Translations under genes and position numbers: made by a program
In this document: piece by piece, positions 31,580 through 61,673 of the stretch
Layout: every line of letters starts with the position of its first letter
Position numbering within the stretch: position 1 is the first letter of the stretch
Assembly (NCBI GenBank): GCA_907165135.1
Contig: OU015567.1
Location: 14,074,001 to 14,138,000, forward strand
Source: Oikopleura dioica
Lineage: Eukaryota > Animalia > Chordata
Direction: 5' to 3'
DNA: 64,000 nt
The notes under the pieces: model-generated
What the model was told of the DNA's origin: nothing
The model's input: the letters and a program-made list of their open reading frames with translations, nothing else
Databases searched by the model: none

Positions 31580-31772
31580 CAGAAGCCGCGTAGCAGCTTT
31601 TTTTAAACGAAGCCGCGAAGCGGCTTTTGAAGAATTAAGATTGAGATTTCAATTTTGCGAAGCCGCTACGCGGCTTTGTCTAAGAAAAAGCCGCTCCGCG
31701 GCTTTTCGTCTAGGGTTTAGTAATACTTTTAAAAGTAATCCTGACTCAGGGAGCCTGACTCAGGTTATCTAC
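31580..31772. mobile_element. Partial CCTGAGTCAGG hAT-MITE
   Basis: AAGCCGC/GCGGCTT hairpins and tandem CCTGACTCAGG. Confidence 0.6.
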
Positions 31773-33388: not shown

Positions 33389-33571
33389 CTAAGCTCGGTA
33401 ACCTGTGTAGAAACCCTGAGTCAGGTTCTGAAAGAGCTTAAATGAAAGTGGCTTCGCGGCTTTTTCCAAAACGAAGCCGCAATTTCAGTCGTTTCTGCGG
33501 CTTCGTTTTCAAAAAAAACGCCGCTCTTTCAGGACCTGACTCAGGTTTTCTACGTAGGTTGCAGAGTCCAG
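33389..33571. mobile_element. CCTGAGTCAGG hAT-MITE family copy
   Basis: Both TIRs and the core are present. Confidence 0.7.
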
Positions 33572-36092
33572 GAAAAATCGCTGTTATTTCATTTCTAAAT
33601 CCAATTTTTGACATGAGAAATTTAATCTGCTAAAAGTGCTTTTTTCACTGAAAAAATCTTTCTTTCCTGTCAACATTTTGTCAGGCGCACTTTTAAAAAA
33701 AGAGGAAGGAAAGACCCTCGAATCTAAAATTTGAGCTTCTCACGCTGTTCAATTTTTAACGCGAAATTCGAGCTGAAACGCGAATTAGAGGAGAGCAAAT
33801 TGCGTCGAAAATTATTTAATGAAGATTGAGCGTGATTTTTGCACGGGATAAAGAGTTTAATCGCAGGTCAAAGGCGATCACGTGGCCTTTTTCTGAGGAG
33901 AAGAATCGTTTCTTTCGAGTATCGGTTCTTGATTTTGGAACTCAGCTGTCATCTTTGGTGACAGGGCGGTACTCAAGTGCTCCTTCCTCCTTTTTTCTTT
34001 TGCGGTTCAAAACGTCATTTTTGCGCGTTCCGAGGGAAATTGAAATCCAAAGTTGAAATTTCTGTAATTTTCGGACGGCGAAGGAGCTAAGCGACGTCTG
34101 GAATGTGAGAATTATATGCTCGATGCACTCGACAATTTAATCCAACAGTTATGCCGCACTCCAACTTAGATAGAATCATGCACACCCTTTGGCCTCTTGT
34201 TATCCTCACCAGCGAACTTGAAGGGAGAATAAAACAAAGCAACTTCGTAAGAACCGATTCAAGTAACCACTGTTTCATTCAGATAGCTCAAAATATCATC
34301 GTGACACCCGTATTTTTCATCCATCAAAAGAGCAATTTTGTGAAATTTTCTCGAAGAATTAGCATTGTGACACCCTTATTTTATCTTTCCAAAATGAAGG
34401 TTTTGCTTCAAATATTCATCGTTAACAGAGGTATACCCTTATTTTGTCTACCTATATTCATGTTTTTTTTCTGCTAAAAACTGGTCTTTATCTTGTCATT
34501 TTTAGTAAAAGAAATCAGAATTTAATTCTTGTCAATTTGTTAAAAAATCAAATTGATGACGAGTATATTATTTTAGCAAATGAATCGGCGGGGTACGATG
34601 AACCTTCCAAACGACGACACTCACAAATATTAGATTTACTCGACTCTTTTTGAGTGGAAACTCTTACTAGTGCTAGTCGTGGCTTTTCGTTTTTCTGGGG
34701 ATGAGCTCCAAATAAATACGGATAAAGTAAATCAAAGATAGTGACGGTGTCTCTTCGCCAGAACAAGATTGAACACGATAAAGACGGGCTACAGGTAGCT
34801 TTAGGGGAATACAGTAAGTGCAGGAGTGTTTGGAAAACGGAGAAAGTGGGATAATCCATCGTGAAAAAAGGGCAGACAGCGAGTATAAAGCGCGGGAGGC
34901 GATAAACTAGAAATCCTGGAGCGCACGCTCTCTTATCAACAACTGCTCGAAATAGATACTGTTGCTCAAAAAACAGTTATAAGCTCAGGCAATTTATTAT
35001 TAGATTTTCATTCTTTCTGCATCTTTGTCGAAAAAAAGAGAATCAAGTGCGGCGTCTTTTTATACCGTAATTTTTCTAAAAGTAATTCTGTTTGTGCAAT
35101 TAAAAGTAACGTTAGCGAGAAAAGTAGATCGGAATAAATAAAGCGGCCCGCTAGGCAAGGAACTGGATTATGCGATACTCATTAAATCCTTCCCGTAAAA
35201 ACATAAAGGCAAAAAGTTCGCTGAAGCAACATTCTATTATTTAGAAATTAATAGGCGACGAAATATCGAATACAAAGAAGATCACTTTTTCTCTTAATTT
35301 TCAATTAAAAAAGACACCTTTTTATCGAAAAAATATTCTTATTTTCCAAAGAGTAAAATGAACGACTTAAAAACTCAAAAATTTTATTTAAAAATATTTT
35401 TTTTTAATTTTATTTTGTCAAAAAACAAAGCCCTTTTCTTTAAAAAATTCTCTCACCTTCGAAAATCTTCTCGGGAATCTTCAAAAACTCTCTTTTTGCT
35501 CTCCAAAATGAATAAAGACAGTGAAAAAAGACATTGAAACAGGTCACTTTTCAATAAAAAACATTCATAGGCTTGCAAAGTTAGTCATTTTTCTTCCTTT
35601 TTCAAAAATCGTGAAAATTCAGGCGGCGCTGCTCCCGAGCGCCATCGCGTTTTTTCCTCTTCGCGCGCGATATCGGGCTCGCTTAGAATTCTAGCGGCGC
35701 GAGAGAGCTAGAATTTTGTTTTGAATGCTTTAACAATCCCTTATCAATAGAATATTCAAATTACAACCCTTCCGAAATCTAATTACTTATTCAGAAAAAA
35801 TATTACTCGGTAAAATATTATTTTCGCAGCTTTTTCGAGCTTCAATTTCATAATCCATTTTCGGGTTGAATCAATTTTCTTTTAACGCAAACCGCCGCAG
35901 CACATGGTTCTATTGGTGGCGCTTCTTTCACCTGACTTTTGGTGCTTTTTAGAAACATTTTACCTTGAAAACATTCGTCAATGCGTTTTCACTAATGATC
36001 TTATTCAGTATGTTGACGACGACTTGCGTAAGCAAATAGTTCTTTTTTCGTTATATATTTTAGCAGTCAGGATATCGGATAAACAGGCTTTT

Positions 36093-38874: not shown

Positions 38875-39000
38875 CTTGGCTCGGCAACCTGAGTCAGGGT
38901 CGTATGAAAGAGCTAAAACGAAAAGGCGCGGCTCAATTTTGCGAAGCTACTAAAAATCAGGTCCTGACTCAGGTTTTTCTGCACAGTTTGCCAAACCAAA
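38875..39000. mobile_element. CCTGAGTCAGG hAT-MITE family copy (degenerate)
   Basis: CTTGGCTCGGCAACCTGAGTCAGG ... CCTGACTCAGGTTTT. Confidence 0.6.
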
Positions 39001-39949
39001 AAATGAGATATTTTCAGCACTGACATTTTCAGAGTTTTCGGGAACTGTCGACGGAGATCCATCGATTCTTCGAGCATCATTGGGATACTCAATGGATCAG
39101 TTGTTTCACCGGGCGGTTGAAGTCGTAACAGGGTGGACCCGACCCGGTCTCAATCACGATAGTCTAAGCTAGCGTCCTCATCAATTCCATTTTGAACCTG
39201 CAACCATCCTCAGCCCTCCAAAAAGACGGGATGATCTCGTTCTTTTTACCGTTATGGTGCGTGTTTTCAAGAGAAACCAATTTGTCATTTTGGGATCAAA
39301 GGAACAAACTTGATTTGCTTAGAAATTTTCTAGCGGCGTTTTTACACTTTGCCCGCGTCGTAATTCAATGATTTTAAAAATGAAATTAATCACGATTCTT
39401 GGAGCATCAGTAATTTATTTTCGGCCGGAAGAAACTTGCTTTTCATCAAAAGTAGGCTTGAACGTTAGGCTCTTAGGAGCAGAATGTGAAATTCTAGTGA
39501 CACGCACATGTTTTAGAGCTGCGTTTTTCTAGCTGAGCCGAAAATTGGCGCTTCTCGAGCTCCACCATCAATCTAACAGAAAGCTTCTATTGTGGGAAGA
39601 TTCAATTTTCTTGACCAAAACGGATTTTACAGAAATTCTTAACAAATTTTGTTAAAACTATTTAAAAAATAGTCGAAATTTTGCGTCAGATCTTTGAAAA
39701 CAGAATTTGTCATTGAAAAACACTTTGGGCGTAAAAATATCATCCCTTTTTTGAGGATGAAAGAGCAGCCGACCGAGAAAGGGAAAAACGCAAAAGTCGC
39801 GAAAGCTGGTCGCTAGTAGTTATAGTAGTGACCCGCATTCAGCCAATTTCTCTTGCTGCTCATTGGCTCGCTGTTTCGGAGCACTGTTCCCTGGCACTCA
39901 CGCTGCTCAAGGCGAATTTGTTCATCAGATTCCGTATGTACTCATAATT

Positions 39950-40075
39950 AAGCATATTCATATATTACGTAATAGTTACATAATTATGCATATAATATTC
40001 ACATATGCATATAATATTCACATATGCATATAATATGCACATATGCATATTGATTACGTAATAGTTACGTAATCG
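39950..40075. repeat. Subterminal tandem and palindromic repeats of the Polinton TIR
   Basis: 19-bp unit ATGCATATAATATTCACAT x~3, flanked by ATTACGTAATAGTTAC repeats. Confidence 0.85.
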
Positions 40076-41133: not shown

Positions 41134-41832
41134 TCATTTATTCGATTTATATTTTACAGGTTTAGATTTAAAGAAATTTTGTGGAGTATTTTCAAAGTAA
41201 TAAAACATGGACATTCCATCAATAAAGTAGTGGTTATCGTCTTTAAAGGCGTTTTGTTTAACAAGCATATCAAGATATTTGGTAGTTAGTTTGCAGGTAA
41301 AACTTGGGCAGCAATCCTCGCGCAATATCTGAACGAGATCATAGCACTCTTGAAAAATTTGAACTCCGCGAGGACCATTTTGATCATAGCGAGCGCATTT
41401 ATAAGCATATTCAAATTTATTTTTATTTTCTAGCATTTGACGCGCAATTTTTTGCAGCTGGAAATCTTTTCGTTTTACAAGCAGTTTGTGTTTATCAAAG
41501 TCTGGAAAGTAACCGGCAGGTGTATTGCGCAGGCATGTATACAAAAAAAGTTGTTTAGGGTAAATTTCATTTGCAGGATCGTCACAGAGCAGTTTTAACG
41601 CAGTTTCATCAAGAAATTCGGTTTTGAACTTGCAGCAGTTTTTTGGACATCCATCGTGTCGCAGTATTTGCAGTATATCATAACCTTTTTGATTCAAAGT
41701 GCCAAAATTACTGCCAAGATCCACACCAGTTTTGATCCATTTTTCTTCATAATTGTCGTAATCATCAAGGTAGCGAGCGGCAAGCTCTTTTAAAAACTTT
41801 GTTTTACGTTTCTTGAGCTTTTGACAATACAT
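41134..41832 (-). CDS. Polinton unknown protein, two copies of the DxxQxLxxDxCx4C domain
   Basis: YDILQILRHDGCPKNCCKF and YDLVQILREDCCPSFTCKL. Confidence 0.75.
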   Translation of the reverse strand: MYCQKLKKRKTKFLKELAARYLDDYDNYEEKWIKTGVDLGSNFGTLNQKGYDILQILRHDGCPKNCCKFKTEFLDETALKLLCDDPANEIYPKQLFLYTCLRNTPAGYFPDFDKHKLLVKRKDFQLQKIARQMLENKNKFEYAYKCARYDQNGPRGVQIFQECYDLVQILREDCCPSFTCKLTTKYLDMLVKQNAFKDDNHYFIDGMSMFYYFENTPQNFFKSKPVKYKSNK

Positions 41833-41866
41833 TCTTAAATTGAAGCAAAATCAACAACGAATACAA

Positions 41867-42244
41867 TTAGTGGAATTTTCGGCCGTCCTCAAAATACACA
41901 TGTGGTGTGCACAAGCGAGCATAGTACAGTAAATGCATGTCGTTGGCTTTTTCACTTTTCAAATCGTCGAGGGTGTAGTGCTCGCCCAAGTCGGCCAGGA
42001 CGAGATTGGACAAAATGCAAATTGGGTTTGTGCAAGAGTCGCACTCGAGCACTTGAAGCAAATCCCAGCAGCGTTGAGTGATGATGTTGCGCTGCTTTGG
42101 ATCCTTTCTGATGTTTTCTTGGACTTGGCGGCATTCGTCGACAATGTCATCAAACTTGTAGTGATTTGTGTAAATGTCCATTGCAAGTTTCATGAGTTCA
42201 AAGTCATCGTGACGCTTGAGTTTCGGCTTTTCTAGATGCTCCAT
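41867..42244 (-). CDS. Polinton unknown protein, one copy of the same domain
   Basis: WDLLQVLECDSCTNPICIL. Confidence 0.75.
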   Translation of the reverse strand: MEHLEKPKLKRHDDFELMKLAMDIYTNHYKFDDIVDECRQVQENIRKDPKQRNIITQRCWDLLQVLECDSCTNPICILSNLVLADLGEHYTLDDLKSEKANDMHLLYYARLCTPHVYFEDGRKFH

Positions 42245-42289
42245 GTGTCTATAAAGTGCTAAAATTATAATCAGAAATCAAAAATGTTT

Positions 42290-42892
42290 CTAAAATTCAA
42301 ATTCTTTTCTGCCAAATCTAAAAAACTCGGCAGGAGTGGTTTCATATACATGAAACATGTACAGATCCTCGGGAAAGCGAGCGTCTTCTGGATCCATTGA
42401 TGCAATGGTTGAACAGAGACCTGCAAGGAATTTTGTTGTAAGTTTGCAGATTGAATTGGGGCAGGTGTCGCGTAACAAAATTTGAACCATGTCGAAGCCT
42501 TCTTGGGTTAGCTGTGGCATTTTATTCTTGTCGATGGTGCTGCAATCCCTCTTTACGATATTGTCCGAAAAATGGCTATCACAGAGGTGGCGGTGAGCGA
42601 TTTCTTGGAGTTTAAATTCTTGATGATGTTGAAGGAGTTTTCGGCGTTTATCTTGTCGTGTCTTGTTTGGTTTTACAAATGGGCGTTTTCTGCTTGTTGA
42701 TTCGTCTTCTTCCTCTGTGTCTGCTTCTTCGCTACTTGTTTCGCTGCAACTGGCCTTGGCGGTGTTTTCCTCTGATTCATCTTGGTCCAACTTTGATAAT
42801 AGATTAATTTAAATTTTCAATTGTATTTTTGATACCTTTTTGTCGGGGAGCTGCTCTTTCACAGTTTCTTCAGGCGCTTTGTTAGTTTCCAT
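42290..42892 (-). CDS. Polinton unknown protein: acidic N-terminus, NLS, one copy of the same domain
   Basis: ATG 42892, intron 42791-42835, FDMVQILLRDTCPNSICKL. Confidence 0.75.
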
Positions 42893-43859: not shown

Positions 43860-44754
43860 ATGACTGTAAGTTTTATTTATAAGCTGGGGTTTTTTATAAT
43901 TTTGTTTGCGTAGCGAACACGGAGTACTACTCGGGCTACTACCCTGGCGCGAGCCATTGCCGATGCCGAGCAATTTCTTCGCAAGGCAAAACACTCGCTC
44001 AACACTGTAGTTGAGTGTTCTACTCTGCTCTCCGCCCCCGCCGCCGCCGCTGCAGCCACCACCAACGATCTTTCCTCTTCGTCTTCTTTTGATGAAGCGG
44101 TTTCCTCAGGTTCGGCTACTTCTGTATCCGATTCGGCGGTTTCCGCCGAGTCAATCGAACTCCCCCGAACCAACTTGCTCAAAAGCGGGACGAAAAAGTT
44201 GTCCACGCTTATTCGACCGTCGACTCGACGCACTCCAGCGAATGGCGATCGAACCGAGCCCCGACATCGCTCCCCTCTATGGCCGATATGTCCGATCGAC
44301 CACGAATCCCAACTCCACCACCAATCGAGCCCGAAGACGAAGGCATGGATTTGCGGGTGCCCCAGCCTAGAAACCCGGCTTTCCGACAGCCTCTTCGGGT
44401 TGAGCTCGCCGCGGAACCTGCTCCTGGAACCTGTAAGTTTTGCATCACTTTTTTTAGCGTCAATTGAAATTTTATTTAGCTCGCCAGATTCCCCTCCAGG
44501 ATTTCGAGCCGGTCTACTCGAAAAACCACAAGGACGAGATGACCGTGCAGATGGTACTTTCCATATTGGGGTACGATCTCCGCGGCTTGGAGCGCGAAGA
44601 GCTGGAAAGGCGAATCTTTGCGCTGGAGCAAGCGTTCGCCCGGCGTTATGGGCGATTTTGGTCCGATATCGTGAACGGTCGGCTCAAACTCGAGCTGCTT
44701 ACGGCTAACAACCGTAAAATGATCATCCCCGGCTTTGGTTGGAAGAAGCAATAA
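43860..44754 (+). CDS. Polinton hypothetical protein(s); frame ambiguous
   Basis: ATG 43860, introns 43866-43913 and 44433-44479. The globular-looking C-terminus (RQIPLQDFEP..GWKKQ) is in frame with ATG 44279. Confidence 0.5.
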
Positions 44755-44896
44755 AAAGGCAAACTTGTCTGCGCTATTTTTAGCTGCAAATAAAAACTTT
44801 TACTGTATTATCTGTGTATTGTGTTTTTTTTCAAGCGGTCTAAAGTGAAGTTAAATTAATAAGAGCATGCAAATTCGAGGATAGGTAGTGAGTGAT

Positions 44897-45279
44897 CTAA
44901 AATTCGTGACTTTCTATAGAGGCTTCAATGTGATGTCGGAATTTTTTGTAGCACATGTCTTCAAATTTGTCGAGAACTTGAAGAGTGCATTTTTTGAGTG
45001 GGGCAAGTTCGTGAGAATCGTCAAGTGAGGCCCAAAACGGCTTTTTAAGGATTTCGCGCATATCCTCCATTCGATGCAAAAGCTTAAAAGCGTTGTTAAT
45101 TTTATTAATAAAAGTTAATTTACCCCGGGTACTCGAACGCCGATCGGATTCAGGAATTCTACCCCTTCGTGATTACATGTATCGATTACGAGCGCTGCAA
45201 ATTGTCTAGTGTCTTTTATGTATTTGTTGATTGTGTCCAGTTCCGAGTCTGACGGGAATTCGAGCTCCTGATTTTCCAT
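44897..45279 (-). CDS. Polinton small hypothetical protein
   Basis: MENQELEFP.. joined through intron 45083-45123 to LLHRMEDMRE. Confidence 0.6.
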
Positions 45280-45534
45280 TTTGACCTAAAAAAGTGAAAT
45301 AATGGCGGCTCGCGAGCATTTATATAGCCCATTTTGATTAATCGCGAAAGTTTTTAATAATGAGCAATTGCGCGCACGTTTCTATGCCCGCATAAACAAA
45401 CTGTTCTAGAACAGTTTTAATTTTTTTAAAAAATGATTTTCGTTGATTGGGTTAGCGAGTTGCCAGCGACGGCGCTAGCGATCAATTCATTTTTACTTTT
45501 TTTTCAGAGTAAGCGAAAAATAACGCGCCCAGTT

Positions 45535-46689
45535 ATGATGCTAATTCGAGAATACAAGTACTATTTTGACAGTGTCAACGCATTTCCAGTATTTTTTACT
45601 AAAAACGATGAGAAAAATTGCCGACAAGAGTTGCTTCAGACGCTCAAGGGACAAGCGAGCTTCCGAAGAATACAAGTGATTCGCATATACATTGAATCAG
45701 TTTTTAATAGAAAAACCAATAAAATTGAGCAAAAAGTTGTCACTCGGTCGTGGCAGGAAATTGGTAAGATTAATCTACAGATTAATATTCATCTTTTCTT
45801 TAGTGGATTTTGGGCCATTTAATGCTTACCATTCGCTTGGAATCAATGCTGCTGATTGCATTTGGCCGTATTTGAATGAACCGTATTTTGGAGTTACTGG
45901 TTTCCGAGTAAGCTCGTTGAATGTTGGCTTGCGAAAAATTACCAACAAGTGCCATTTGATCCTTGAGTGCGTTCACGAATGCTTTAGCGGAAAAGCGCCA
46001 GTTAACACGATGAAAATTACTTTTCCTAATTTGAAAAAGTTTTTTAATCGTATAAATCCTGGCAATCTGGCAAAATTCCCCTTCCGCATCGTCTTTATCC
46101 TGTATATGCGCCTATGGGCAAAAGAAGTCTTCCAGAGGGATCGCCGATTTATCAACGCTGCGAGTGGTCAAGTCGATAACGAGGGCATTGATCGATATAT
46201 AATGGAAATCTTACGATCAACTGGGATCCCACATCATGAAATCGATATAACTTTAGCTCCTCGCAACAAGTTTTTGTACTACTTGACGACTTGCCGTACG
46301 ATTTACATTGGATATTTCTATCATCATCCATTTCGCCACTACCGAAAACTGCCGTTCTATGACATGTTCTTTTTTGGCAACACTGACGCTCTAAGAGAAC
46401 ACATTCGGGAGCTTGAAAAGGTTGCGCTTAGTCGCAATTACGATCTGGTAAGCGCTCCTTTGCAAATTTTTTTACTTGTTTTTAGTTTATGCCGTTTTTT
46501 ATCGAGGTAGAGCAAAAAGAAGAGCCAAAAGTGGTTGTATTCGATTACACTGTAAAAGGAGCCAAGGACGCGAACGTTGCTTTCGATCCACTGGTTGAAA
46601 TCGAAAAATACGATCTCTCTCTTTCGTCACCTAGCGCCAGCGCTGTCGCCAAACGTCTTTACGAGTACAAATTTTTTGCCGACGACTGA
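45535..46689 (+). CDS. Polinton unknown protein (paralog A)
   Basis: Three exons, introns 45764-45803 and 46448-46485; shares the PNLKxFF..WAK..DxEGxD domain with the next gene. Confidence 0.7.
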
Positions 46690-46742
46690 GTCTTTCAAAT
46701 AAACTCTTTTTTATATTTTTACATTTTGCGTTGTTATTTTCA

Positions 46743-47901
46743 ATGAAAAAAATTTTTACAATCGAGAAAAATGACCATCTGCACGAGTATAAATTTCCGT
46801 TTTTCCACCCGCATAGAAACAAGTTTTCTTCGTCTCAACCTGTTGTTTCGGTTTTCCCGGCTCGAGCGTACGATCTTATCTCTTCGAAAATTGTCTTTTT
46901 TATAAAGGACAGTGTCGACGAAGCTACAGGAAAGACAGTACAATCCGTTGTGGTTAGACAAGTTGAAGAATCCAGTGAGTAGTCTTTGTTGTCTTCACGG
47001 GCATAAGGGTTTTTTAGCCGCCGAAGGGCCGCATTTGGCAATAGATGGGACGATGAATGATGAAATTCCCAGTTACATTTCCACCAAGCACACATTGCGT
47101 CGACGAATGAGGATCGATACTGGCGACGAAGCTGAAAGCAGACCGATTAATTACGGTTTCAAAAAAATGAATGGAGGTCGAGTGTTTCGCGAATTCGAGT
47201 ACGCAAACAAAAAAGTTGTTTGCAACCAACAAAAATACGTGTATCCGAATTTAAAAGAATTTTTTCTTGGCAAAACGCTAATCGAAAATTTCTATTTTTG
47301 TGAGCACGCGATTTTTCTCTCGTACATTACGTCATGGGCAAAAGGTCTTTTACAAAACGACTCGCGCTTCTTACTCGACATGAAAACTCGCGAATACGAT
47401 CAGGAAGGCGTGGATATGGCCATTTTCGATCTGCTTGAAAGAGCAGGCATCGGCAAAGACGCTCTCGTGGTTGACAAAATGGACAAGGCAACTGTAAATG
47501 GCACCCACATTGTCGTGTCTTTTATTTTCAACGAAAAAAATTGCGGCGATATCTTTGGCGGTTATCGCCATCTTTGCGCAGAGTGGATTAAGCAGCTTGA
47601 AGCGCACCGTAAGTTTTCTTTTTCGCGACCTGCTTTTTCAAATTTCAATTTTAGCTGAATTCGAAGAATCTCACCACAAATGTCTGCAGCTCAATTTGAG
47701 AAGATACGACATCGGCGGCTGGGACGGGTTCACATATTCTGGCCAATATTATAAACGAGTTTATTTTTATCCTGCGATACCTAAAACTGGCATTTATATA
47801 CGGCCCTTTTAAGTTGTTTTTGTTATCGAAAAGCTACACGATGTGGCATTCACGACGAGGTCTGCGAAGAAATTACTGAATCCAACTGTATCTTTATGTA
47901 G
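46743..47901 (+). CDS. Polinton unknown protein (paralog B)
   Basis: Introns 46975-47017 and 47609-47654. Stops at 47812 as written, or at 47901 (..CIFM) if one T is missing in the run 47807-47810. Confidence 0.7.
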
Positions 47902-47968
47902 TTTTTACTGATTTTTATTTGTTTTTTTATAATAAAAGTTTCATGTCAAAATAATAAACAGTCGTTGA

Positions 47969-48703
47969 TTATTGAGACAGGCCAAAAATCCATGGAGCTC
48001 CACCTAAACCAGCAATTTCGCCAAAGTAATTTGTCAGGACGCGAGGTTGATCGGGATGCCAAATTTCTCTGATGAGAATTATATAGTTGTAGTTGGGGAT
48101 TCGTCTTTCTTGAAATAGTTTAACAGCTGAGTTGTAAGCATCTACAAGACCACACTTGGTCGCAATTGTCTTATTAATGCCGCAGTCTGTGTTATTAGGC
48201 ATTAATACATACGATGTCATGCAGTTTCTTTAAAATAAAAATTCAAATAAATATACAATTATTTTCACGTACCTGTAGGTGATTGCTTTTTTTGATTTTT
48301 CGTAGAAATTTTGGGCCACAAAGATAAGACTTACGCCAAGGTGCCTACGGCCATATGTTAGTAAATATTCGCACACATTGTGTTCAATGCAAGCGGACCA
48401 TAAATCATCTATTACAATTAGGCTTTTGCTGTCGGATTCTATTTGAAAAGTATCGTCAACCCATTCTTGCGAAGGGAGACCCTCGAGTAAGTATAAATGT
48501 TGATTAGAGCCAGGTTTAACGTCTATGGGTTCTAGCCTCGGCATAAAGTAATAAATGTTTTTTATATCCCCTTTTATGCCGTCGCACTCTATAATATTTT
48601 TTACGAAATTTGATTTACCTGTACCAGTGCTGCCCGCAATTAACAACGAACACGGATGCACAAAACGCACATCCGGGACGAATTTAGTTAAATGTTCAAA
48701 CAT
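47969..48703 (-). CDS. A32/FtsK-like genome packaging ATPase
   Basis: Walker A GSTGTGKS, Walker B LIVIDD, RHLGVSLIFVAQ; intron 48228-48272 restores ITYRNC. Confidence 0.92.
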
Positions 48704-49080
48704 TTAACGTAGCGGACGTTGAAGTAGCCTTCTACTTTGAAGTCGTTTTTCGCTCGTTTCGAGTTAAAGTCTGGAGGCTCGTAACCGTCGACGTAGGCGA
48801 TGATGGTCTTTTCCTCCAAGTCCTTTTTCAATTGTTCGCGAAAGTACGCGCGAATTTCCGAATTTTCTTGATCCCAGCCGAGAGCGCCAGAAATGCACCG
48901 CAACCCGATTTTTTGGTGCTTTTCAATCAGTTCTCGCCCAGAAAAGTCTTTCTCACCGTGCTTGAAGTCGACACAGTCGCCACCGGAATTGTAACGATTA
49001 CTTCCGAGTAAGGTTAACCAGGTACAATTCAACTTGATTGCAGTGCACTCTTTTTCAGCTTGTTCCTTCAGTGCTTGCAT
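48688..49080 (-). CDS. Polinton hypothetical protein
   Basis: ORF from ATG 49080, downstream of a TATA box and overlapping the ATPase start. Confidence 0.6.
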   Translation of the reverse strand: MQALKEQAEKECTAIKLNCTWLTLLGSNRYNSGGDCVDFKHGEKDFSGRELIEKHQKIGLRCISGALGWDQENSEIRAYFREQLKKDLEEKTIIAYVDGYEPPDFNSKRAKNDFKVEGYFNVRYVKCLNI

Positions 49081-49112
49081 TTTTCGTTGTGCACTGTTTC
49101 TGCTAGAAATGG

Positions 49113-49174
49113 CCTTTTTATACAAGATTTTTGGGCTGGCACTTGATGGCGCCCGCGCGTTGACTATAAAAAGC
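49113..49174. promoter_or_regulatory. Bidirectional core promoter with divergent TATA boxes
   Basis: TATAAAAAG on - (49114-49122) and on + (49165-49173) around a GC-rich GGCGCCCGCGCG, between divergent gene blocks. Confidence 0.6.
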
Positions 49175-49321
49175 GGCTACTGTAGTTATTTTGCTTATTT
49201 AAAAATTATCGTTTTCGGGATAAGCAGCTTTGGAGAAAAAGTCGACTTTTAGTTGTAAGTTTTTAAATAATTATTATTATTATTCAGTTTATTTTGGACG
49301 AATGTAAATAACCTTTTAAAG

Positions 49322-50401
49322 ATGAAGTCTGTTGATAGTAACAAAGCACCTGTAAATGGCGGCTGTTATTTTTCATTGTCTCAAATGCTTAATATTTGCT
49401 CATTTTGGGAGATTAATCCCTTAACTAATAGAGTTAGAGTCCGCGCGCCGAAAACCAAAGCTGAGCCGTATCCAGATTATGACTCCGAGGAGGAGGAAAC
49501 AGCCCGCCTGGTTGCAGGATTATGCAACAGGAGCATTCCTTACAGCAAAGATGGACGAACGAGACAGGCAAGAGGAAGAGCGACAGAAGGAGATGAGAGC
49601 GGCAGCGAAAGCGGCAGTGTCATTAGCGGCGAAGGGGCGGAGGATGAAGAAGCCTCGTATGAGCGCAAACGCACATCAACAAAACGTAAACGTAAATTCA
49701 ACGACGCCTTCAACGATGAGCAAGAGTATAGAAACGATTCCGACTACGATGAAGAACAACATGGCGACAAGCGCAGACGGAAAACAGGGCGGCTCCGCGC
49801 TGAGCACGAGCGGCATTCTCGATCGATGGACAAAGAGCATTTCAAGCAAGGTAAATCAAGCTCGTGGAAAAACGCTGGAAAAATTGCGGGACGAAAACGT
49901 AAACGATCCCCCACCGACGGCTTTACTATCACCAGCGATGATTATAGAAGATTCCGGCGTTCAGTTTATGACAACTCTAATAGGCGCAAGGAATCCCGTA
50001 ACAGGCGAGCTGAAAGTCCCTCAAGAGTTGATAGTGACCAATTATCCGAGAATGCCACCGCCCACGACTCCGAAGATGATTATGACAAACAAGAATCCAT
50101 CTCTCGCACACAAGATTCAAGAGCTGCCAGACGATACTCGCGAGAGCGATCAGTTATTGTCGAGAATCCGGCGCACAAATTTAAACGAAGACGGACCGGA
50201 GATTGGGAGTCGCCCGCTGGACGTGTCACTACCGTTAGAAAGGCCGCTTCCAAGTCTGCCCAATCCAAATTCTCTGGCAAGCGGGGTCGACCTAAAAACA
50301 TTTCAAGAGCCTCAACTCCAGAGAACGTCAAGAGCGTTCACGACGAACCCGACAGCGACGACGCAGTCCTCGATTCCGCAAGCAACTTTTGGTCCCGATA
50401 A
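49322..50401 (+). CDS. Overlapping-frame basic/acidic disordered protein with an AT-hook
   Basis: 359 codons open in an alternative frame of the integrase gene; KRKRK, KRRRK, RKRKRSP and GKRGRPK. Confidence 0.55.
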   Translation: MKSVDSNKAPVNGGCYFSLSQMLNICSFWEINPLTNRVRVRAPKTKAEPYPDYDSEEEETARLVAGLCNRSIPYSKDGRTRQARGRATEGDESGSESGSVISGEGAEDEEASYERKRTSTKRKRKFNDAFNDEQEYRNDSDYDEEQHGDKRRRKTGRLRAEHERHSRSMDKEHFKQGKSSSWKNAGKIAGRKRKRSPTDGFTITSDDYRRFRRSVYDNSNRRKESRNRRAESPSRVDSDQLSENATAHDSEDDYDKQESISRTQDSRAARRYSRERSVIVENPAHKFKRRRTGDWESPAGRVTTVRKAASKSAQSKFSGKRGRPKNISRASTPENVKSVHDEPDSDDAVLDSASNFWSR

Positions 50402-51372
50402 TGCACCCCAAAAAGCGCCCTTTACATTGGATCTTTTTTACAATAATAAGCAACCGTCTTTTTATAGTGGAATGGATATGCAAAAATTTAAACGTATGAA
50501 CGAGCCAATTTCGCTTCATCGTCCTTTAAGATCTAAATTTACTCGCAATCCAATAATCGCCACTAGTCTTTATTCGTCTTTATTCGCTGATACTATTGTT
50601 GCTTATAAAAATTATGGCTCTTTAAATAATAATTACAAGTATATTTTATGTGTAATTGACGCTCTTTCTCGTCAAAGTTTTGTTAGGAAAATGGTAAATA
50701 ATGATGCCAAAGAAACAGCATCAAACTTGCGTTCTATTTTTGAAACACTTGATCTTCCGGGGCATACTTTTTTGCTCTGATCAAGGTTCTGAATTTCAAG
50801 GAGAAGTGTCTGAGCTTTTGCGTGAGTGGGGCATGACGCGCGTATTTATGACTGGTAAACACAAGGCGTCTATGGTCGAACGTTTCAAGTAAGTAAGCAA
50901 CCGGCTATTTTTTATAATTATAAATTCTAGTCGGACGTTGGAGAGCAGATTGGAAAGGGCTTTTACAAGCCAAGGAAATGTGAAAAGATGGGTACCCATT
51001 TTAGATGATATAAATAACGCAATTAACAACACTGTACACTCTTCAATTGATATGAAACCTTCTGACGTTAACCATAGTAATGATCGATTACTTTTCGAGT
51101 ATTTAGAGAGTAAGCGTTCCAAGGAAGCGCGACAACGTAAAACAAAATTTCATGTAGGAGATATTGTTAGAATTCCTAGGCAAAATATAAAACGTTTTGA
51201 GAAAGGCTCAGTTGCCAAGTGGACTAAAGAGCTTTATCAAATTAGACAAATTCATAAGGGCGCTAGGGTTTTTACGTTTTCTGTTCATAATTCTAAAGGG
51301 GTTCTTGCAGATCGTCGTTATTATGAAAATGAATTAAATTTAGTTATCCCTTTTACTGAAGTCAAGCAATAA
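49479..51372 (+). CDS. Polinton retroviral-like (rve, DDE) integrase with a long N-terminal extension
   Basis: ADT..YKYILCVIDALSR, SDQGSEF, KASMVERFNRTL (after intron 50889-50930), HSSIDMKP, KFHVGDIVRI, WTKELYQI, YYENEL. Frameshift in the T-run 50768-50773. Confidence 0.95.
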
Positions 51373-51412
51373 TAAGCATAGCTATTTATTATCTATCAAC
51401 AGGTTAATTTAG

Positions 51413-51613
51413 ATGTCAACTGGTCGGTCTTTTCTGGTTAAACCACGAATATCGCGATTAAAAACTTCTGCATTGACTGCGCGACCAAGACGTCGTCGGC
51501 GACCAGCCCGACGACGACAACGGCGGCGGCGGAGACGACGAGCACCAACAGGCGTTCGAGGGCGCAGACGACCACGACGCCGGAGACGGAGGCGTCGACG
51601 ACGAGCACTTTAA
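51413..51613 (+). CDS. Protamine-like arginine-rich protein (putative virion core protein)
   Basis: 66 aa with long poly-Arg runs encoded by mixed CGN/AGA codons; lies between integrase and MCP. Confidence 0.75.
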   Translation: MSTGRSFLVKPRISRLKTSALTARPRRRRRPARRRQRRRRRRRAPTGVRGRRRPRRRRRRRRRRAL

Positions 51614-51882
51614 GCATTGAGGCTAGACGCTGCGCGTCTATAGAATGTTTTGAAACATTTCTAAAACAGAATTTTTTAATGATTTTTTAATCATTCTTGC
51701 ATTGTGTCATTTAATTCTTGTTTCGATTATTTTTGCGCACCTTTATATTTTTTTGCAAAATGTTAGACCACTTTTTAGTTCTTTAAAACTTAACCCTTTC
51801 TTTTGGATGCGCGGTTTGGCAAATAATTGACTTTTTTGTTTTCTAAAGGTGAAATGATCAATATTTTAGCAATACTGAAATA

Positions 51883-53792
51883 ATGGAGGAAAATTACGGA
51901 AATCTTTTGTATTATAAAAAACCGGCTAAAAAAGGAGAAGATCCTTATGGGGGCTATAAGCTTGTTCATACGATGGGCCAGTTTCACCATTCTGACGGTC
52001 GAATTGAATTTCAAATGCCACCCGATAAGTTACCCATAAAGCTTGATCGGTGTATGTTGATTTTTCAAGTTCGAATGCCCTCTAATTTTGTGCCTGACAA
52101 CGGTTTCGCGACAAAACTTATTGACAAGCTCAACTTTTATATTCTGGACGATTGCATTTTCTCAACGTGGACAGACGGTCTCGAGTACTTATTTTTTAAC
52201 AATTTTATAAAAAAACTAAATTACTCGCCAACTGCTCAGGAGATTGAATTATTTCCCGAGGGCCATTACGACTCTTTTGATGCCGATGCGGACGAATTGA
52301 ACGAAATCAAATGCATAAGTAGCGGGATGACGTTGGTGGAAAACCGTCAACAATATGCAATGGCTGAATGGGTGGCGCTACCGAACGCACTTAAAATTTC
52401 AAAAAACATTGCGACAACTATTACCTGCGATGGACTATATCATCGTTATTTGGTTCGCTCTCCATTAAGTCATGGTTTAGCAAGACAGCCTCGTGTTTTA
52501 CCATCAGCTTCGAGGTTAAAATTTGAAATTTCGACAGATGCTTCGGATCCTACAGATTCGTCGATGAAATCTGCAAAAGCGATTAAACGAATGGCAATGC
52601 GCTGGAATGATTATCAAAAGTGTAGAACTTTGGAGAGCAATTTTTTTGAAGTCGACGCCGATGGTAAAATAACAAGAGAGCTATTTTCTTGGCCTTTTGT
52701 TAACGGACTTGAAACGACAACCGAATGGGTAGAACATGGAACGGAAGAAGAATGCGATTGCACTCCAGAAAAATATGTTAAAAAAGAGTATCTAGGAATT
52801 GATCAATTGGGCGGCGATTTTGTGTCAAAGTCGCAACGATCCAAATTGTATTTCAAAGGTACTCCAGGCGTCGCAGCCAAAGAGGGTGTAAAGGCTGTCG
52901 CAGCAAAACCGTCTACATGGGCGCCCCACAAGGTAAAACGAGTTATTCCCAGATACGAGCGATTTACGGATGAGAATGATGAAGACAAGACAAAATGGGT
53001 TTATTTCTGGTACAAGACTGGATTAGATTTTAAACTCTCGCAAGATAATCTTCGACATTTGCAGATTGAAAGTGTTTTTTGCACGCCAAAAAAAGATGAG
53101 CGACCATTTATTGTTGGCAAACGACAAGCAAAGATTCCTTTTTATAACCCGAGACTTACAGTTGGAGTTTGGACAAAAGGATATCAGTCGTACATTGTTG
53201 AATGTTCGCGCGGAGAATTTCCAGATATGATTATTTTTACAGGAATGAGCAGCGCTAGAAAAACTCCGAGTTTTGATCGCTGCATAACTAAGACTCAATT
53301 GTACGAGCCTGGTTTTGAAATTGAGCAGGTAGAAATTATGATAGATGGTGATCGTATTCATGGAACTCCTTGGACGTCTGGACAAGATCATTACTTGAAT
53401 TTTCTGCGCCACAACGGCAGATATGCCAACAAGTCAATAGGCGAAGGGTTAAACTTTTTCCAATTTTGCAACCATAATTGGCATGTGCCCATTTATTTGG
53501 GTGACCGTCGAGGAATGTCTGGGCTCGTTACGATTCGAGTTACATTCAAAAAGCAACTGGGCGCCGATTGGTGCCCATTTATAATGAAGTTTCACGTTGA
53601 CAACCTTATTCTTGATGCTAATAGAAATGGTAAAATTTCCTTTTGTTTTTCATTTGTTTCAAAAAGTTTTTAGAGGCGACTGTGGAAAGCAAAGCTGTTT
53701 CAGCAGTTGTTAACAAACCAGATGTTTCCGTTTCTGCCTTGGCCCAAGAAATTATTCCTCAAATTGGGGTAAAACGAAAGCTGGGACGATAA
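51883..53792 (+). CDS. Double-jelly-roll major capsid protein (Polinton PY-like)
   Basis: VPDNGFATKLIDKL, LNYS..LFPEGHYD, PLSHGLARQPRVLP, GEFPDMIIFTGM and IEQVEIMIDG resemble Polinton MCP motifs; intron 53630-53673; basic tail KRKLGR. Confidence 0.8.
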
Positions 53793-53893
53793 AGGCTGCG
53801 GTAGCAGCGCTCGAGCGACAAACGCCAGAGTGTTCTAGCGACAACTCTCTACTGACGCAATCTTACGTTTTTTATAATAAATATGTTGTTGTT

Positions 53894-56800
53894 TTGTTTG
53901 AATTTTATTTGTATTGCATGAAACGGTTCTTACCAAATAGACCTGAGGGTCTTTCTAAAAGTGATGTTGAAAAAAGGAGGCGCCGTCTTATGGCAGATCC
54001 GAGTAGTCAACGTCATTTAGAAAATAATCGGCAGGACATGAGTGATGATGAGGAGGAAATTCGGCGCAATATTTCTCGACAACGATTTGATCCATTGGCA
54101 AGTAGTAGCAGCAGCAGCAGCGAGGACGAGTGCGATGATAATGGCGCAGACAACGTTGATGATGATATTGATGGCTACACTCCCGCCGATCCGCTGGATG
54201 ATAATGAGCAAGGCACTTCAAATATATACGACACTGTTTTGATGGGAATAAATTGGTGGAATTATTTGAAAAGAATTTATCCCAAAACGCCAAAAAAGAT
54301 AGCGCCAACACTCCGGAAAGAGTTATGCAATTATAGTACTCGAGAGCTTGTCAACGAATACGGATCATTTCCTACTAGAGCTGTATTGCCAAAGCTTGAA
54401 CGACATCTAAACGTTGATATTTATGTCTTGTATGGTGGAACTTTTACACCGTTGGGAATTTCGTATCGGCCTCATAGACTTACCAACCGGGAAAACATTT
54501 CTCAGATAATAAACAGATTGGAAAGTGCTTCACCTTTCAATGCAGGGCGACCATGTGTTGTACTTCAATCAGCAAGACCTTATTTTCATCGACTTGGTAC
54601 TTTTCATGTTTTGCCAACTAGGCGGACATTTGAAGATCGGGAGCGAAATTGGGTAAGTATTTGGCAGGCGCTGGTACAAATACGATGGCCAAAATTACCA
54701 CAGCGCGAATATTTTATAAAAATTGCCGCTATAAAGAAGGAGCTGTTTGGCGATGGTCAACGTGACACTCAGTTTACTATTGCGGATGGAATTTTCAACA
54801 AGATTCGTCAACGTTACAGCGTTAATATACGATTATTTGTTGGCAAGATAATCAACGACAATGTCAATTTGAAGCAATGCGTTTATTCGACTATTGGGAC
54901 TGCGAATTGCGTCAATTTAAACATTTTGGTTGCTCCGCCTCAAGAAGACGAGTTTGCTCGAGAATTTAAAAAATTGACGAGCGTATGTTATCGTCAATTT
55001 GATAATTACCCTGGACTCTTACCTCTCTATGCAGCAAACAAGGATTATCAGCGTAGAGCGACCAAGTGCAATCGTTTTCTTGACAAGACGAAAATTGCTC
55101 AGATCTTGCGGTGGACCAAAAACGATAATCATCAATTTCACGACGCGTCTGAAACGTTTTTGGATGATGATGATGATGATAGCATCAATTCCATGGAGCA
55201 GGGACTTCACATTGCTAACGCTGCCGAGGACTGCGATGAAGATGATATTTCCTTTGTCGATTTTGATAGATTGACGGAAAATGCAAGCGAGTTTGGGAAT
55301 GCGCGCAAAAACCCTTTTATTGATGCTGAATGCAATGTCGAAGACAACAACGACGCCGAAAACGACGAACAAGCATTCGAGTATACTTTTAGCGATTGGG
55401 AGTCAAATACAGAGGCAAGAACAGTTTTGACTCAGGTTCCAGCAGCTGAGCAAAATGTTGATGACCATAGCGATGCGGGCACAGGGTCTTCTAGCGTTGA
55501 AAATAGTCTCTACGCAGAGTACAAACCAATACGAAATGTTTTAAGCATCATGCCAAATGTTTTTCTGATGCTACACTTGTCCGAGTGCTTTCGGATCGTC
55601 ATGTGCGGGCGTTACCAAAGTGCAAAACTCGACACTGTTTATTTACAAGCTCTAAAGCAAAAAAGATGAAAAAGCACGAAATGTGTTGTTCAACTGAGCC
55701 AATCGACATTATTCGACAAACGGTGCAAAGTTGGCGAGTGTTGGATCATGTAAAAGAATTGGTTAGCGAAGGTTATTTGCCCTCATTCGATTACGTCCAA
55801 GAGTATTTTATAACATACGACATCGAATGTATAATGTCACGTGGCATGTTTTCGTCGGGCGACAAGTTTCACAAGTTGGCAACCTTGTGCACGTATTCAA
55901 GCGACGGAGAGCGTAATTGCTTTACGCGTAAAGGCGAAGGGTTCGAAGCTACTCTTGTGATGCTTACCGAATTTGTCAACTATTTGATTATTCTTCAGCG
56001 CGAAATGGTTCGCGAGCTTCCCGACTGTATCAACAATGGAATTACTTTTTACGAGCAAGAAATCGAAAATGAAAACAAAAAGGAAAAATCCCGTTGTGTG
56101 CAAAAAGTGGCGTCTTTTCGAAAAAAGCTCAAATATTTGAAAGACTTTCACAAATTGAAAATTTACGCTTGGATGGGCGAAAGATACGACATGTGCATAT
56201 TATTTCCTTCTTTGGTGTCGGTGCTATATCACTTTGTTGGCGGAGATACAAAGCTCATCAATTTTATAAAACGCGCAAATGGATATATGATGGTTGAGGC
56301 AAATAATCTGAGTTTTCGCGATTTCAAAAATTATACCTGTCCAATGTCGCTAGAAAAGTTGGCTCGTTCGTGCGGACTTGACTCTAGTTTATTTGTAAAG
56401 GGTACCTTTCCATACGAATGGTACACGACAATGGATCAGTTACGAAAAGCGACACAAATGGCTGCGTATCCCTGTTTCTATTCTTCAATGACAGTTGCAT
56501 CCAATAGTTTTGTCCAAGAGATGGATGATATTGTTGCCGACAAAATAGCCGCGCAAGAGTGGCCAAACGAGAGGGACGCGCTGATATCGCGAATTATTTC
56601 CTTTCTTCACTTGCAATCTATTCATGAGGATCCTTCGGCAAAGGAGCACTTTGAGAACAAGGGCGAGAGCGAGCAAATTTCAGAAGGCATATATTCTACA
56701 CTTGACCTGTATGAAGATTGGAAATCTCAAATACGAGTTGCGCTGATCTGGTGCGACACATTAAAAGATGGCGATTCGACAAGGAAGACTACAATGCGCA

Positions 56801-59429
56801 AAAATTTTTCAAGTTTTCACCGCGAAAATAAGAGGCAAGTGTGCTTTTGTGGAAAAAGATGCGCCAAGAGTGGGAAGAAGATACTACTGGAATCGTTACT
56901 CGACCAACAATGATGAAATACCTTATCAATTACAATTATAACGACTGCATATTGTTGGAAGGGTCAATTCGCGCATTTGGTAAAAGTAATAAAGAAAAGT
57001 TTGGCCTTGGCATTCATTCAGAGTTGAGCATTTCTCAACTAGCGCAAAAGATTGCTTTTCTCAAGTATAAAGACGATTGCCCGGGCATTTATTCGACCTC
57101 GCCAAAGTTTCCATTTTATCTGCGAGATATGCGTAAAAATCTGACTGGTGGGATTGTACAAGTGATGCATCGAGCAATTTACTTGAATGGCGAAAATCCT
57201 AAAATCCCAGAGGCGGCGTGGAAAACTGAAACTGGGCGAATTTACAAAAATGTAACAACATTTGATTTCAATAGTTTATACCCGCAATCGTTTCGACAAT
57301 ATTTACCTTGTGGTCCTGGAATAATGTATCAACTACAAAAAATTGGCTACTCTTGCTCAAATTCATCGGAAGAAGAAAAACGGTTTTTTGGCATAGGAAT
57401 GTTTAACCAGCGCGAAAACACATCACTGGAGTCTGTTCGCTGGTTGGAATATCTAAATTGGTCAAATCGGCACGATTTTAATGGTGCAATAAAACATTCG
57501 TATAATTTTGAAGAAATGCAATTTGGTCCATATTTTATTGATGGCTACGCTGAAGCGATTTATCCTGAAGCTGCTGATGAGCGAAACTGGATAAAAGTGA
57601 CACCCTTTAAAAGCGTTAAAAAACGTTATCTTTTCGAGTATAGAGGCTGCTCTTTCCACCCGTGTACGCAGTGTAATCGACGACCATTTAGAGCGGCGAA
57701 AAAAGTCATCAATGGGCCCGACGGCCACCCGATTCAAGTTGACTTTACTCGCGACGAGTTGCTTGCCAAGGAAGACGCTCGCATACACGCCATCGTTGAC
57801 GATATAAGACAACGCGACGGTCTCGAGGATTGGGGCGCTCCGCCAGTTTTATTAAACGAGCTTGGAATAGCTGTCATGTGTGAAGGTCCTCAAAACTTTC
57901 CGCATACGCTCGTCATTAAGATGGCTTGCCGCTGGATAAAAGAGTGGCGCAGTTTGGAACTTGACGACGACGAAAGCGCTGCTCCGTATTCCAAAACGTA
58001 TCCGTTTCTCTTTAAAGGCGCAAAAACCCGTTCTGGAATAAAGGCCGGCAAAGAAGGCGTTACTCACGACGATTTTAAAAGAGCGTTACTCGATGAAGAT
58101 GAAAATGGGAATAGTAAATTCTTTGGATTTGCCATGGTGGATCTGTGGTCGCCCCCAGAAGTTGTCGAAAAGTATATTCATACGCCACCAATATTTGCAC
58201 GAAAGGAATTAACTTTGGAACATTTGCAAGGTGACTTGGCAAGAACGCTTTCTGAAAAACAAAAACAAAGAATGTTTCCCTGCGAGGAGAATGTCTTTTG
58301 CTTCAACGTGGAAGACTATTTTATTTCGTCAGAGTTGTTGGTCTATTATTTAAAAATGGGACTCAAATTTCGCGTCAAATACTTTGTTTCATACTACAGG
58401 GATAAACCGTTTAAAGATTTTGTAAATACGTTGGTGGCGGATCGAGTGAAGGCTGCCCAAGCAAATGATACATCGATGGCAAACTGGATTAAATTTGTTC
58501 TTAATTCGGCTGTTGGATACTTTGCAATCAACCGAGCAAAATTCATGAATACAAAAATTCTTTCATCTGGCGATTTGTATACAGCACTGCGAAATCCGCG
58601 CTTAAAAGCGCTCAACACGCTGCGCAATGAGGGTCATAATTGCGATCCGCTGCACGAGGCTCTCTTTAAGAAAAACGTGTCACCCACATAACCGCTCTAC
58701 AAGTTCAACTTTTTGTTTATCAAAATAGCAAACTCTTGTTTTTTTAATTTCGCGACGTTCTTATGAAATATATGAAAGATGGATGGACAAAGTTATGCTA
58801 CGCAGACACAGACTCGCTGATGGTGGCTATGACTGCTGACTCGTTGCGAGAATGCGTAAAACCATCTCTTGTTAAAGAGTGGGATGAGGAAATGGTGCCT
58901 AAATGGTTTGCAAAGGCCGGCGACGCAGCGTCACAAAAAGAACCAGGGCTGCTAAAAGAAGAACACCGTATCAACAAAGGGTGGATGATTGCTCTAAGCC
59001 CAAAATGCTACATCATGACAGAATGCGACAGAAACACGATTGAAGAAGAAATCTTTGATCCAAAAAATCGCCATCGCGTGTATGAACTAATTGACGAGCA
59101 TGAAAGGGCGCAACTTGGAGCGCTGGAGGTGAAACGATCAGCAAAGGGCTGCTCCCAATCTATTAAACTCAGGTAAGCAAAAACGATCATTTTAGAAATT
59201 ATGAAAATTATTAAGACACTTGGACTATTTAGCTGCGCTAGTTTCCGACGATATGGAACAGAGCGTCATCAAAAGCATTTCGCTTTTTCAATTTGATCAA
59301 ATTGCAAAGCGCATGAAAACGAAAACGCTCACAAAACGCGTCATCAATGCTGCACTAAAAAAGCGAATAATTCACGCGGATAAAATCACAACTTCTGCCC
59401 TCCAGAATGCTGACGGAACATATTTATAA
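53894..59429 (+). CDS. Protein-primed family B DNA polymerase, disrupted as assembled
   Basis: ExoI YDIEC, ExoII GERYDM, KGTFPYEW, motif A FDFNSLYP, motif B KFVLNSAVG, motif C YADTDS, KEPGLLKEE, ALSPKCY, SAKG; intron 59173-59215; three -1 frameshifts and in-frame TAA at 56829 and 58745. Confidence 0.93.
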
Positions 59430-60709: not shown

Positions 60710-61673
60710 CTATTTTTTCAATTTTGGAGCATCATTGTCCAAGAGCGTGTCGGTGTTTCGTTTTGTAGCAGTTGGCGTTTCAGGGGGCGGATCATTGTGA
60801 TACTGCAACACGATTGCTGGATTGAGCGTCCGGTTTGGGAAGCAGTGGAGGCACGGTTGAGCTCGAATCCGAATCTTGTCCTTTGAGACCACAAAGTAAG
60901 TCTCTTGATTTAGAAACTCGAGGCTTGTCGTCAACGAGGCAGAGTATCGAGTCGAGGTCGGCGGTGGCTGTTGCTGCTGCTGCTGCACTGGAGACGTCGG
61001 CATCGGTCGAGCCTGGCGATAATAATCGTAATGAGCTGGATACTGTTGGCTGGGGAAGAACGTTGGCGGAAATCTCTGCGGTGGTTGATATGGAGCTGGA
61101 GGAGGTGGCGGGTGAGGCGCCGCTGGAAAAGCAAGAGGAGGTTGAAATTGGTTCCAGTAGTTGGTATACGGGCAGTTGCTCCATTGACCATCCTCCGAGA
61201 GTTGGCGAGGCCAAGGGGTCATTCCATTGAGATTTGCATCTATCGGCGCGGGAATCGGTGCAGGTGTCGAACATTGGGGCGGACGGGTGGGAATCGGTGT
61301 AGGCGCTTGCGAGGGATAAGACTGCATCAAAGTCGTCGCTGCCAAGGTAGTCGTCAAGGGTGAATGAAGAGTCGGAGAATTCGGCTTGCTGCATATCGGC
61401 GTGTGCTCTTTCTTGACTGTCGCTTGCAAAGACGATTGCTGGGGAACGACTTGATCGCTGCTCAATTCGGCTGTCGACGCTGACAACGAGTCCGGCGTCT
61501 GAGCTTGCGGAATACATGCGTTTTGAGAGCTTGTCGTAACCGTCTGCTCCTGCAAAGCGCTTGTTACTTCCTCGTAGTCGTCGTCGTCGCAAAGATTCAC
61601 AACTTCTGGCGGCGTCTTGACAATCGATTAATTTGTTTCGATTTTAACAAGAAAATTTTACCTGAGACTCCAT
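60710..61673 (-). CDS. Pro/Gln/Thr-rich disordered protein with a SIM-like motif and CxxC
   Basis: ATG 61673, intron 61616-61661 gives MESQTPPEVVNLCDDDD. A further intron 60669-60709 suggests an extra exon if one A is missing. Confidence 0.65.

Follow-up and report, generated by a model that had tools for sequence, protein, structure and literature searches.

Polintons or Mavericks (Polintoviricetes; adintoviruses) are the closest described systems to the element analysed here, and Mavericks are a recorded repeat class in Oikopleura dioica. According to passages of PMC8097293, intact vertebrate Mavericks are intronless and an (AGT)2 end motif is known from them, and according to passages of 10.1101/2024.03.25.586562 adintovirus integrases carry a C-terminal chromodomain. 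We analysed a 64,000-nucleotide stretch of the O. dioica genome (contig OU015567.1; hereafter the window), which from position 39815 onward is a Polinton whose right end lies beyond position 64000. The hallmark genes, namely a type B polymerase (DNA_pol_B_2, PF03175, E = 6.4e-16 over 56832–58688), a retroviral-like integrase and a packaging ATPase, were recognised by Pfam and, for the integrase, by Foldseek. Protein-primed type B polymerase, rve integrase, A32 ATPase, AGTAGT end and presumed capsid gene are all as in described Polintons, whereas a double-coded integrase front extension of 316 residues, the lack of a chromodomain and the presence of short introns are unlike them. The last integrase exon in the window ends a few residues past the C-terminal barrel motif and gave no Pfam match to the C-terminal chromodomain that serves as a criterion in the adintovirus definition of Starrett and Buck; the integrases of two related metagenome loci (L001 and L003) and of distant relatives end similarly.

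The ATPase exon has 66% identity and the same layout in L001 and L002. The presumed capsid ORF had no Pfam match and no PDB sequence match, and viral contigs scanned with the presumed capsid gene and with alignments of the two overlapping frames described below contained no relative. A protease-like ORF of another locus (L008), which we take to be such from its motif, found no match in the window when used as a query; the element continues past the window's end. Named relatives of both overlapping frames are O. dioica gene models. RNA reads from four runs, compared at 85% likeness with 44000–53800, yielded 4, 4, 3 and 0 reads with a partial fit and none spanning a joint, a result uninformative on expression.

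An earlier note on this DNA had described two plus-strand frames open together for about 920 nt at the front of the integrase, and this was borne out. Frame A is open over 49271–50401 with a Met at 49322, and frame B, +1 relative to A, is open over 49425–50780 with its first Met at 49479 and continues into the integrase, such that 307 codons are stop-free in both (Table 1). Over 49322–50401, stops number 37 in the third plus frame and 13, 9 and 20 in the three minus frames. No other same-strand double-open stretch in the window is as long as this one of 324 codons; the second longest comprises 277 codons and the rest 140 or fewer. If B alone were coding, about 16–23 stops would be expected in A, and zero was reached in 0 of 5000 shuffles; if A alone were coding, just 2–6 would be expected in B, and their absence had P = 0.060 by codon permutation and P = 0.0056 (element codon usage) or 0.001 (uniform usage) by synonymous resampling. 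The A-only test has less force, as T is scarce at A's second codon positions (only 10%), A being poor in Leu, Ile, Val and Met. Taken by itself, the window sequence argues strongly for A and moderately for B, and decisive support for the overlap comes from relatives.

Table 1. Features of the window, in window coordinates (A, upstream gene; B, integrase frame).
Feature	Coordinates	Strand	Evidence or remarks
Probable left terminus of the Polinton, beginning AGTAGT	39815..39828	+	Sequence; only end inside the window
A32-type packaging ATPase exon	48230..48703	-	Pfam Pox_A32, E = 2.8e-5; oriented divergently to A and B
TATAAAA box upstream of A, putative promoter	49165..49171	+	Conserved in L001
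Gene A, 359 aa	49322..50401	+	9 matches in the A search including the window's own, 10 with a profile; alignments
Gene A N-terminal conserved domain, residues 10–75, opens with NGG-C word	49349..49546	+	
Dual-coding stretch of 307 codons, with the A tail in frame 0 and the integrase extension in frame +1	49479..50401	+	
Integrase start and R-rich...DY motif, then predicted long helix (residues 18–48)	49479..49523	+	
Frame-B conserved helix, residues 112–130, invariant W117 and N126	49812..49868	+	Frame A poorly conserved there
Conserved frame-A helix beneath B block 149–183	49916..49972	+	
Frame-B conserved block, residues 149–183, predicted beta-hairpin	49923..50027	+	Overlies conserved frame-A helix
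Frame-A motifs SVIVENPA and GRVTTV	50150..50242	+	Frame B mostly unconserved there
KRGRPK, AT-hook-like word in frame A	50279..50296	+	Not conserved
rve integrase core and C-terminal part	50427..51372	+	rve Pfam match in 9 of 14 rows; Foldseek, foamy-virus integrase
Protamine-like ORF, 66 aa, 50% Arg	51413..51613	+	Counterparts in L001 and L003
606-codon ORF, presumed major capsid gene	51853..53673	+	Position and relatives only; 42% identical in L001
Protein-primed type B DNA polymerase, several ORF pieces	55507..59176	+	Pfam DNA_pol_B_2

Frame B begins MTPRRRKQPAWLQDY and the integrase N-terminal motif starts at residue 317, which leaves a front extension of 316 residues. This extension, noted earlier as long and Pro/Thr-rich, does belong to the integrase (Pro and Thr make up 19.5% of B residues 1–307), and its R-rich...DY opening motif is conserved in 10 of 14 rows of the B alignment. 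Frame A encodes the highly charged protein with basic clusters that had been predicted (21% Lys + Arg, 17% Asp + Glu, net charge +16, four runs of at least four basic residues).

Relatives were collected by several routes. With B as the query there were two full-length matches, at 32–36% identity; a metagenome scan kept 80 loci, of which L001, L002 and L003 match the extension; and a profile of the extension only, run against 1.84 billion proteins, recovered 12 at E ≤ 0.001. Ten of these entered the 14-row B alignment, from which P0022 (2098 residues, with a repeat-type match in 18 stretches) and P0023 (mixed frames) were dropped, and P0005, P0011, L001 and P0033 were dropped from the A block statistics as near-duplicates. 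In all three close metagenome loci both frames are stop-free and in the same frame relation as in the window, with no sign of the free accumulation of stops in one frame that the earlier note had set against its own proposal. Because L001 and L002 are 99% alike, the long overlap is represented by three independent DNA lineages, the window included, and joint alignments gave A and B identities of 36% and 33% between the window and L001 and of 35% and 32% between the window and L003. Across the three lineages, zero stops in B compares with 1.3–3.0 expected by permutation (P = 0.059, 0.009 and 0.16) and 4.9–7.1 expected by synonymous resampling (P = 0.0013, 0.0033 and <1/3000), and zero stops in A with 11–18 expected.

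Constraint on B was assessed at its second codon base, which is the wobble position of A. Among the 14 B rows, second-base differences were 0.28 in block 112–130 and 0.27 in block 146–183, against 0.28 in the integrase core; linkers reached 0.51–0.62 and the opening 22 residues 0.44. Since the blocks were chosen from the same alignment, the comparison with the integrase core is the fair reading. Differences between the window and L001 at A codon positions 1/2/3 were 5/5/21 upstream of B's Met, 9/3/6, 11/9/3 and 11/6/6 in B-led blocks, and 4/4/9 and 2/0/5 in A-led blocks, and these counts indicate that conservation alternates, with B-led blocks lying between A-led ones. Changes at A's wobble position become fewer at B's start, affecting 21 of 45 codons before it and 6 of 28 after it (P = 0.045). 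The synonymous codon share among identical residues was not lower in the overlap, either for A (15/38 upstream vs. 44/95 in the overlap, P = 0.56) or for B (41/84 vs. 29/65 in the core, P = 0.62), and the remaining test of this kind was likewise not significant (P = 0.37). As judged from these alignments, a dual-coding overlap of about 300 codons at a Polinton integrase is real, with both frames conserved.

The structure model of B has a confident helix at residues 18–48, a low-confidence helix and hairpin over 112–171 and a long disordered linker. Its conserved block reaches a pLDDT of only about 57 and has no structural or sequence match, including no usable match in the ESM Atlas, and a Foldseek search with the B model matched the integrase core alone, with nothing at E ≤ 0.001 (best E = 0.014, foamy-virus integrase). 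Some 190 of the extension's 316 residues show no conservation and could be filler. Complex prediction of B residues 1–190 with A residues 5–230 scored 0.00, which gives no verdict either way. Five relatives found by the extension alone (P0013, P0016, P0017, P0019 and P0020) run unbroken into the rve core. The integrase frame is interrupted near 50770–50780 in the window copy, where the interrupted piece has no rve match, and is intact there in L001–L003. An integrase that lacks a chromodomain suggests that the front extension may have taken over targeting. The R-rich motif presumably resembles acidic-patch binders, and our literature search found no paper on an acidic-patch role for this motif in Polinton integrases.

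The most conserved part of A, residues 10–52 (80% pairwise identity), lies upstream of the overlap with a single-coding third-position pattern, and the first two thirds of the N-terminal domain are outside the overlap. Because A has its own domain there, the arrangement is an end-to-start overlap of two genes and not a gene lying wholly inside the integrase. The description of A as overprinted on the integrase is not supported, as each gene has an unshared conserved domain, and the same observation speaks against classical overprinting, in which an ORF is born inside an older gene and has a narrower distribution than that gene. The A tail is mostly disordered, both basic and acidic, with short conserved motifs and a terminal NFW; the structure model has a pLDDT of 47. 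Motifs at residues 53–75, 196–222, 273–287 and 298–307 and the final NFW are kept at 41–65% identity, compared with 19–23% in linkers, and the opening word xxGG-C is found in all eight rows reaching that far. The searches made gave no homology support for a function of A, and its domain had no usable match in the ESM Atlas; that A is a core or chromatin protein is a fair guess.

How B is translated bears on the strongest alternative, in which the integrase is a fusion that starts in the N-terminal domain of A and enters B by a +1 frameshift or splice near 49479, like Gag-Pol. We consider this unlikely, and the earlier note's suggestion that A is joined to the integrase in such a way is disfavoured by a conserved Met at B's start and by the lack of a shared slippery word of the −1 type. 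One named O. dioica gene model, P0023, does pass from the A N-terminal part to the B blocks with the switch at B's start, but it then returns to the A tail, which may reflect two offsetting indels or a gene-caller artefact. The window and L001 have CCAG directly 5' of B's ATG in common. At 49352 the window also has a word resembling a GT donor, which in an element with other short introns would suit a splice, but this word is missing from L001. A scan restricted to −1-type words found no slippery heptamer common to the window, L001 and L003. Both groups of relatives retain a Met at B's start, which a fusion would not require; in 6 of the 10 rows that contain the DY motif this Met precedes it by 13 residues, although database protein starts are gene-caller choices biased to the first Met. 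This single register favours an own start for B over fusion by frameshift or splicing, as do the stops that close B just upstream of its start in the window and L001, together with the absence of a shared slippery word of the type scanned. Between B residues 202 and 332 there is no Met in the window, and L001 has none at the integrase core start. Counted from A's start, three AUGs lie ahead of B's in the window and two in L001; by sequence, the three in the window are a poor setting for simple leaky scanning, and since AUGs precede B's start we infer either leaky scanning at a low level or an mRNA whose 5' end is shorter. In the region 49110–49200, which has the appearance of a divergent promoter, TATA-like words occur on either strand together with a word similar to ACGCGT, with conservation in L001.

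Less credible still is the proposal that A is an AT-hook protein which binds the AT-rich terminal repeats of the element and thereby tethers or packages it. KRGRPK is a good AT-hook-like word and rare in shuffles of A ([KR]RGRP[KR] arises in 0.05%, RGRP in 1%), KRGR-like words occur late in the A tail in 4 of 12 other rows, and AT-rich 19-base repeats lie at 39985–40050, near the left end. Against this, the RGRP core is found in 2 of 13 frame-A rows but in 3 of 14 frame-B rows, Pfam AT_hook matches 0 of 13 frame-A rows, and the word lies in a segment of 19% identity that is among A's least conserved, other A motifs being far better conserved; the earlier characterisation of A as an AT-hook protein was accordingly abandoned. 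AT-hook proteins of the HMGA type compare with A in one KRGRPK word, which in A is single, unconserved and without a Pfam match. A better AT-hook word, KRGRPRK, occurs in the integrase extension of P0012, P0015 and P0017, with one weak Pfam match (E = 0.038). Such words would be better read as basic words for DNA contact, gained and lost in one frame or the other.

That only A is translated, so that the hydrophilic codons of A would incidentally keep B open and the integrase would start near its core, is very improbable: the scarcity of T at A's second positions, the permutation results for the window (P = 0.06) and L003 (P = 0.16), the non-significant synonymous-share tests and the choice of frame A by most gene models among the named O. 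dioica copies in the A search speak for it, but B blocks match the integrase core in conservation at positions free in A, B is conserved where A is not (block 112–130), the extension is continuous with the rve core in five relatives, and L001 offers no Met at the core start.

The breadth of the arrangement was assessed by a mechanical survey of all 80 loci and reading by hand. The Lys/Ser/Glu-rich end of a short upstream gene overlaps the integrase start in the same frame relation in L004, L005, L006, L007, L009, L010, L014, L015, L028, L030 and L055, and in L013, L018 and L019 an ATPase tail does so instead of a short gene; the overlap in these distant relatives spans roughly 30–135 codons. 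Within L004, L005, L007 and L030, A-wobble changes fall from 131/213 to 37/150 at B's Met (six non-independent pairs), and Met opens B in all four. An integrase tree (FastTree, 54 sequences, second half of the integrase, midpoint root; 27 of the 80 loci left out as the match was too short) placed all 13 hand-labelled overlap loci that it contains in a group with the window (support 0.85). Throughout the window's clade the integrase is preceded by a gene whose tail is in the −1 frame. The mechanical survey also found the −1 frame open over 23–48 codons of a short extension in eight loci (L051, L058, L063, L067, L070, L071, L073 and L079), and the ones that the tree includes lie outside this clade, so that the arrangement may not be exclusive to it. 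Similarity of distant upstream genes to the A N-terminal domain is plausible by eye, with homology unsupported (hhalign probability 0.1). Integrases of L025, L036, L043, L050 and L057 have a different front domain of 90–98 codons containing HKYTGP.NP, which we take to recall parvovirus-type phospholipase A2.

Other features were observed along the window. A short GT-AG intron in the integrase (50889–50930) occurs at the same place in L001 (near 3859) and L003 (near 1239), and many relatives reaching this site terminate there as database proteins. The protamine-like ORF lies between the integrase and the capsid gene and contains 39% and 40% Arg in L001 (region 4337–4801) and L003 (region 1734–2171), where it overlaps a frame of 146–155 codons ending in a hydrophobic segment; the partner frame is interrupted in the window, where the region extends to about 51840, and the pair is likely a third overlap of the element. 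On the minus strand at 60795–61627, frames of 305 and 283 codons overlap over 277 codons with zero stops, against 8–12 expected whichever frame is real (0 of 3000 shuffles reach zero; window only). Several frames are open together for about 120 codons at 44011–44708, which is within chance by permutation (P = 0.28) and has P = 0.007 by synonymous resampling. The left arm contains three adjoining minus-strand ORFs with a common Cys-containing motif (41134–42808) and two adjoining plus-strand ORFs resembling each other (45680–47658), none with a convincing Pfam match. Outside the Polinton, 14472–33572 and a region near 38880–38990 hold a MITE-like family of short elements, whose ends are inverted and which contain palindromes.

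We consider it probable that the locus consists of two same-strand overlapping Polinton genes, both conserved, in which A's charged tail shares its DNA with a 316-residue integrase front extension that likely starts from its own AUG at 49479 and likely aids access to the nucleus and chromatin. One promoter, with the TATA box at 49165, may serve both genes, and B would be reached by leaky scanning past three AUGs or via a shorter 5' end, a mode of starting that would keep integrase output low relative to A. The R-rich...DY motif, the helix and the conserved helix-hairpin block, joined in some relatives by an AT-hook, could together act in tethering, replacing the job of the adintovirus chromodomain. 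As the weakest step, A might be a nuclear DNA-associated protein of core type, like adenovirus protein V, beside a separate protamine-like protein. The overlap likely grew as A's stop moved downstream or the integrase start moved upstream, growth being proposed because relatives range from roughly 30 to 300 codons. A wider reading, which we advance only tentatively, is that an undescribed intron-bearing Polinton lineage lost its integrase chromodomain and built a targeting arm from its neighbour's +1 frame; the overlap would have grown from about 30 to 300 codons with a de novo folded domain, and a single mRNA would set how much core protein is made per integrase. With at least two more double-coded stretches, the element would show, in a rare series of snapshots, how overlapping frames give birth to domains in an animal DNA virus.

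Annotation treats Polintons as arrays of separate ORFs, and at this locus gene callers choose one frame, so that either a gene or 300 integrase residues is missed in every copy. In the literature covered, a dual-coding overlap at a Polinton integrase is apparently undescribed: the word 'overlap' is absent from the portions searched of PMC8097293, PMC10748475 and PMC11161782, and passages of PMC8502044, PMC2836005, PMC5240408, PMC8008620 and 10.64898/2026.06.19.733378 describe no such overlap. If the reading is true, integrase targeting in this lineage is encoded in the overlap, which offers a testable route to chromatin choice without a chromodomain.

Passages of PMC7998265 describe the adenovirus core proteins V and VII as basic, nuclear and DNA-associated, with pVII cut at M/L-X-G-G. 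The xxGG-C opening of A is similar; L occupies the first position in 3 of 8 rows and M in none, such that the opening mostly does not match the adenovirus protease consensus. A is also unlike V and VII in having no sequence or fold match to them and in being nearly as acidic as basic, and a better analogue of pVII and mu is the separate Arg-rich ORF. By analogy, a protein-V-like role for A is conceivable and somewhat doubtful.

Polyomavirus ALTO/Middle T and Arnao of adabscoviruses are likewise +1 overlaps known from sequence analysis, according to passages of 10.1101/2024.03.25.586562, although theirs is a new ORF inside a replicase gene, whereas here the overlap runs end to start and each gene has an unshared domain. 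The phiX174 A/C overlap and the hepatitis B polymerase spacer with pre-S/S, as described in passages of PMC8227390, are similar in being same-strand and disorder-rich with frame-led blocks. Unlike these, the overlap here lies on the integrase of an integrating double-stranded DNA element well over 20 kb long, and its length varies about tenfold within one clade, a range in which the de novo birth of a domain could be followed step by step.
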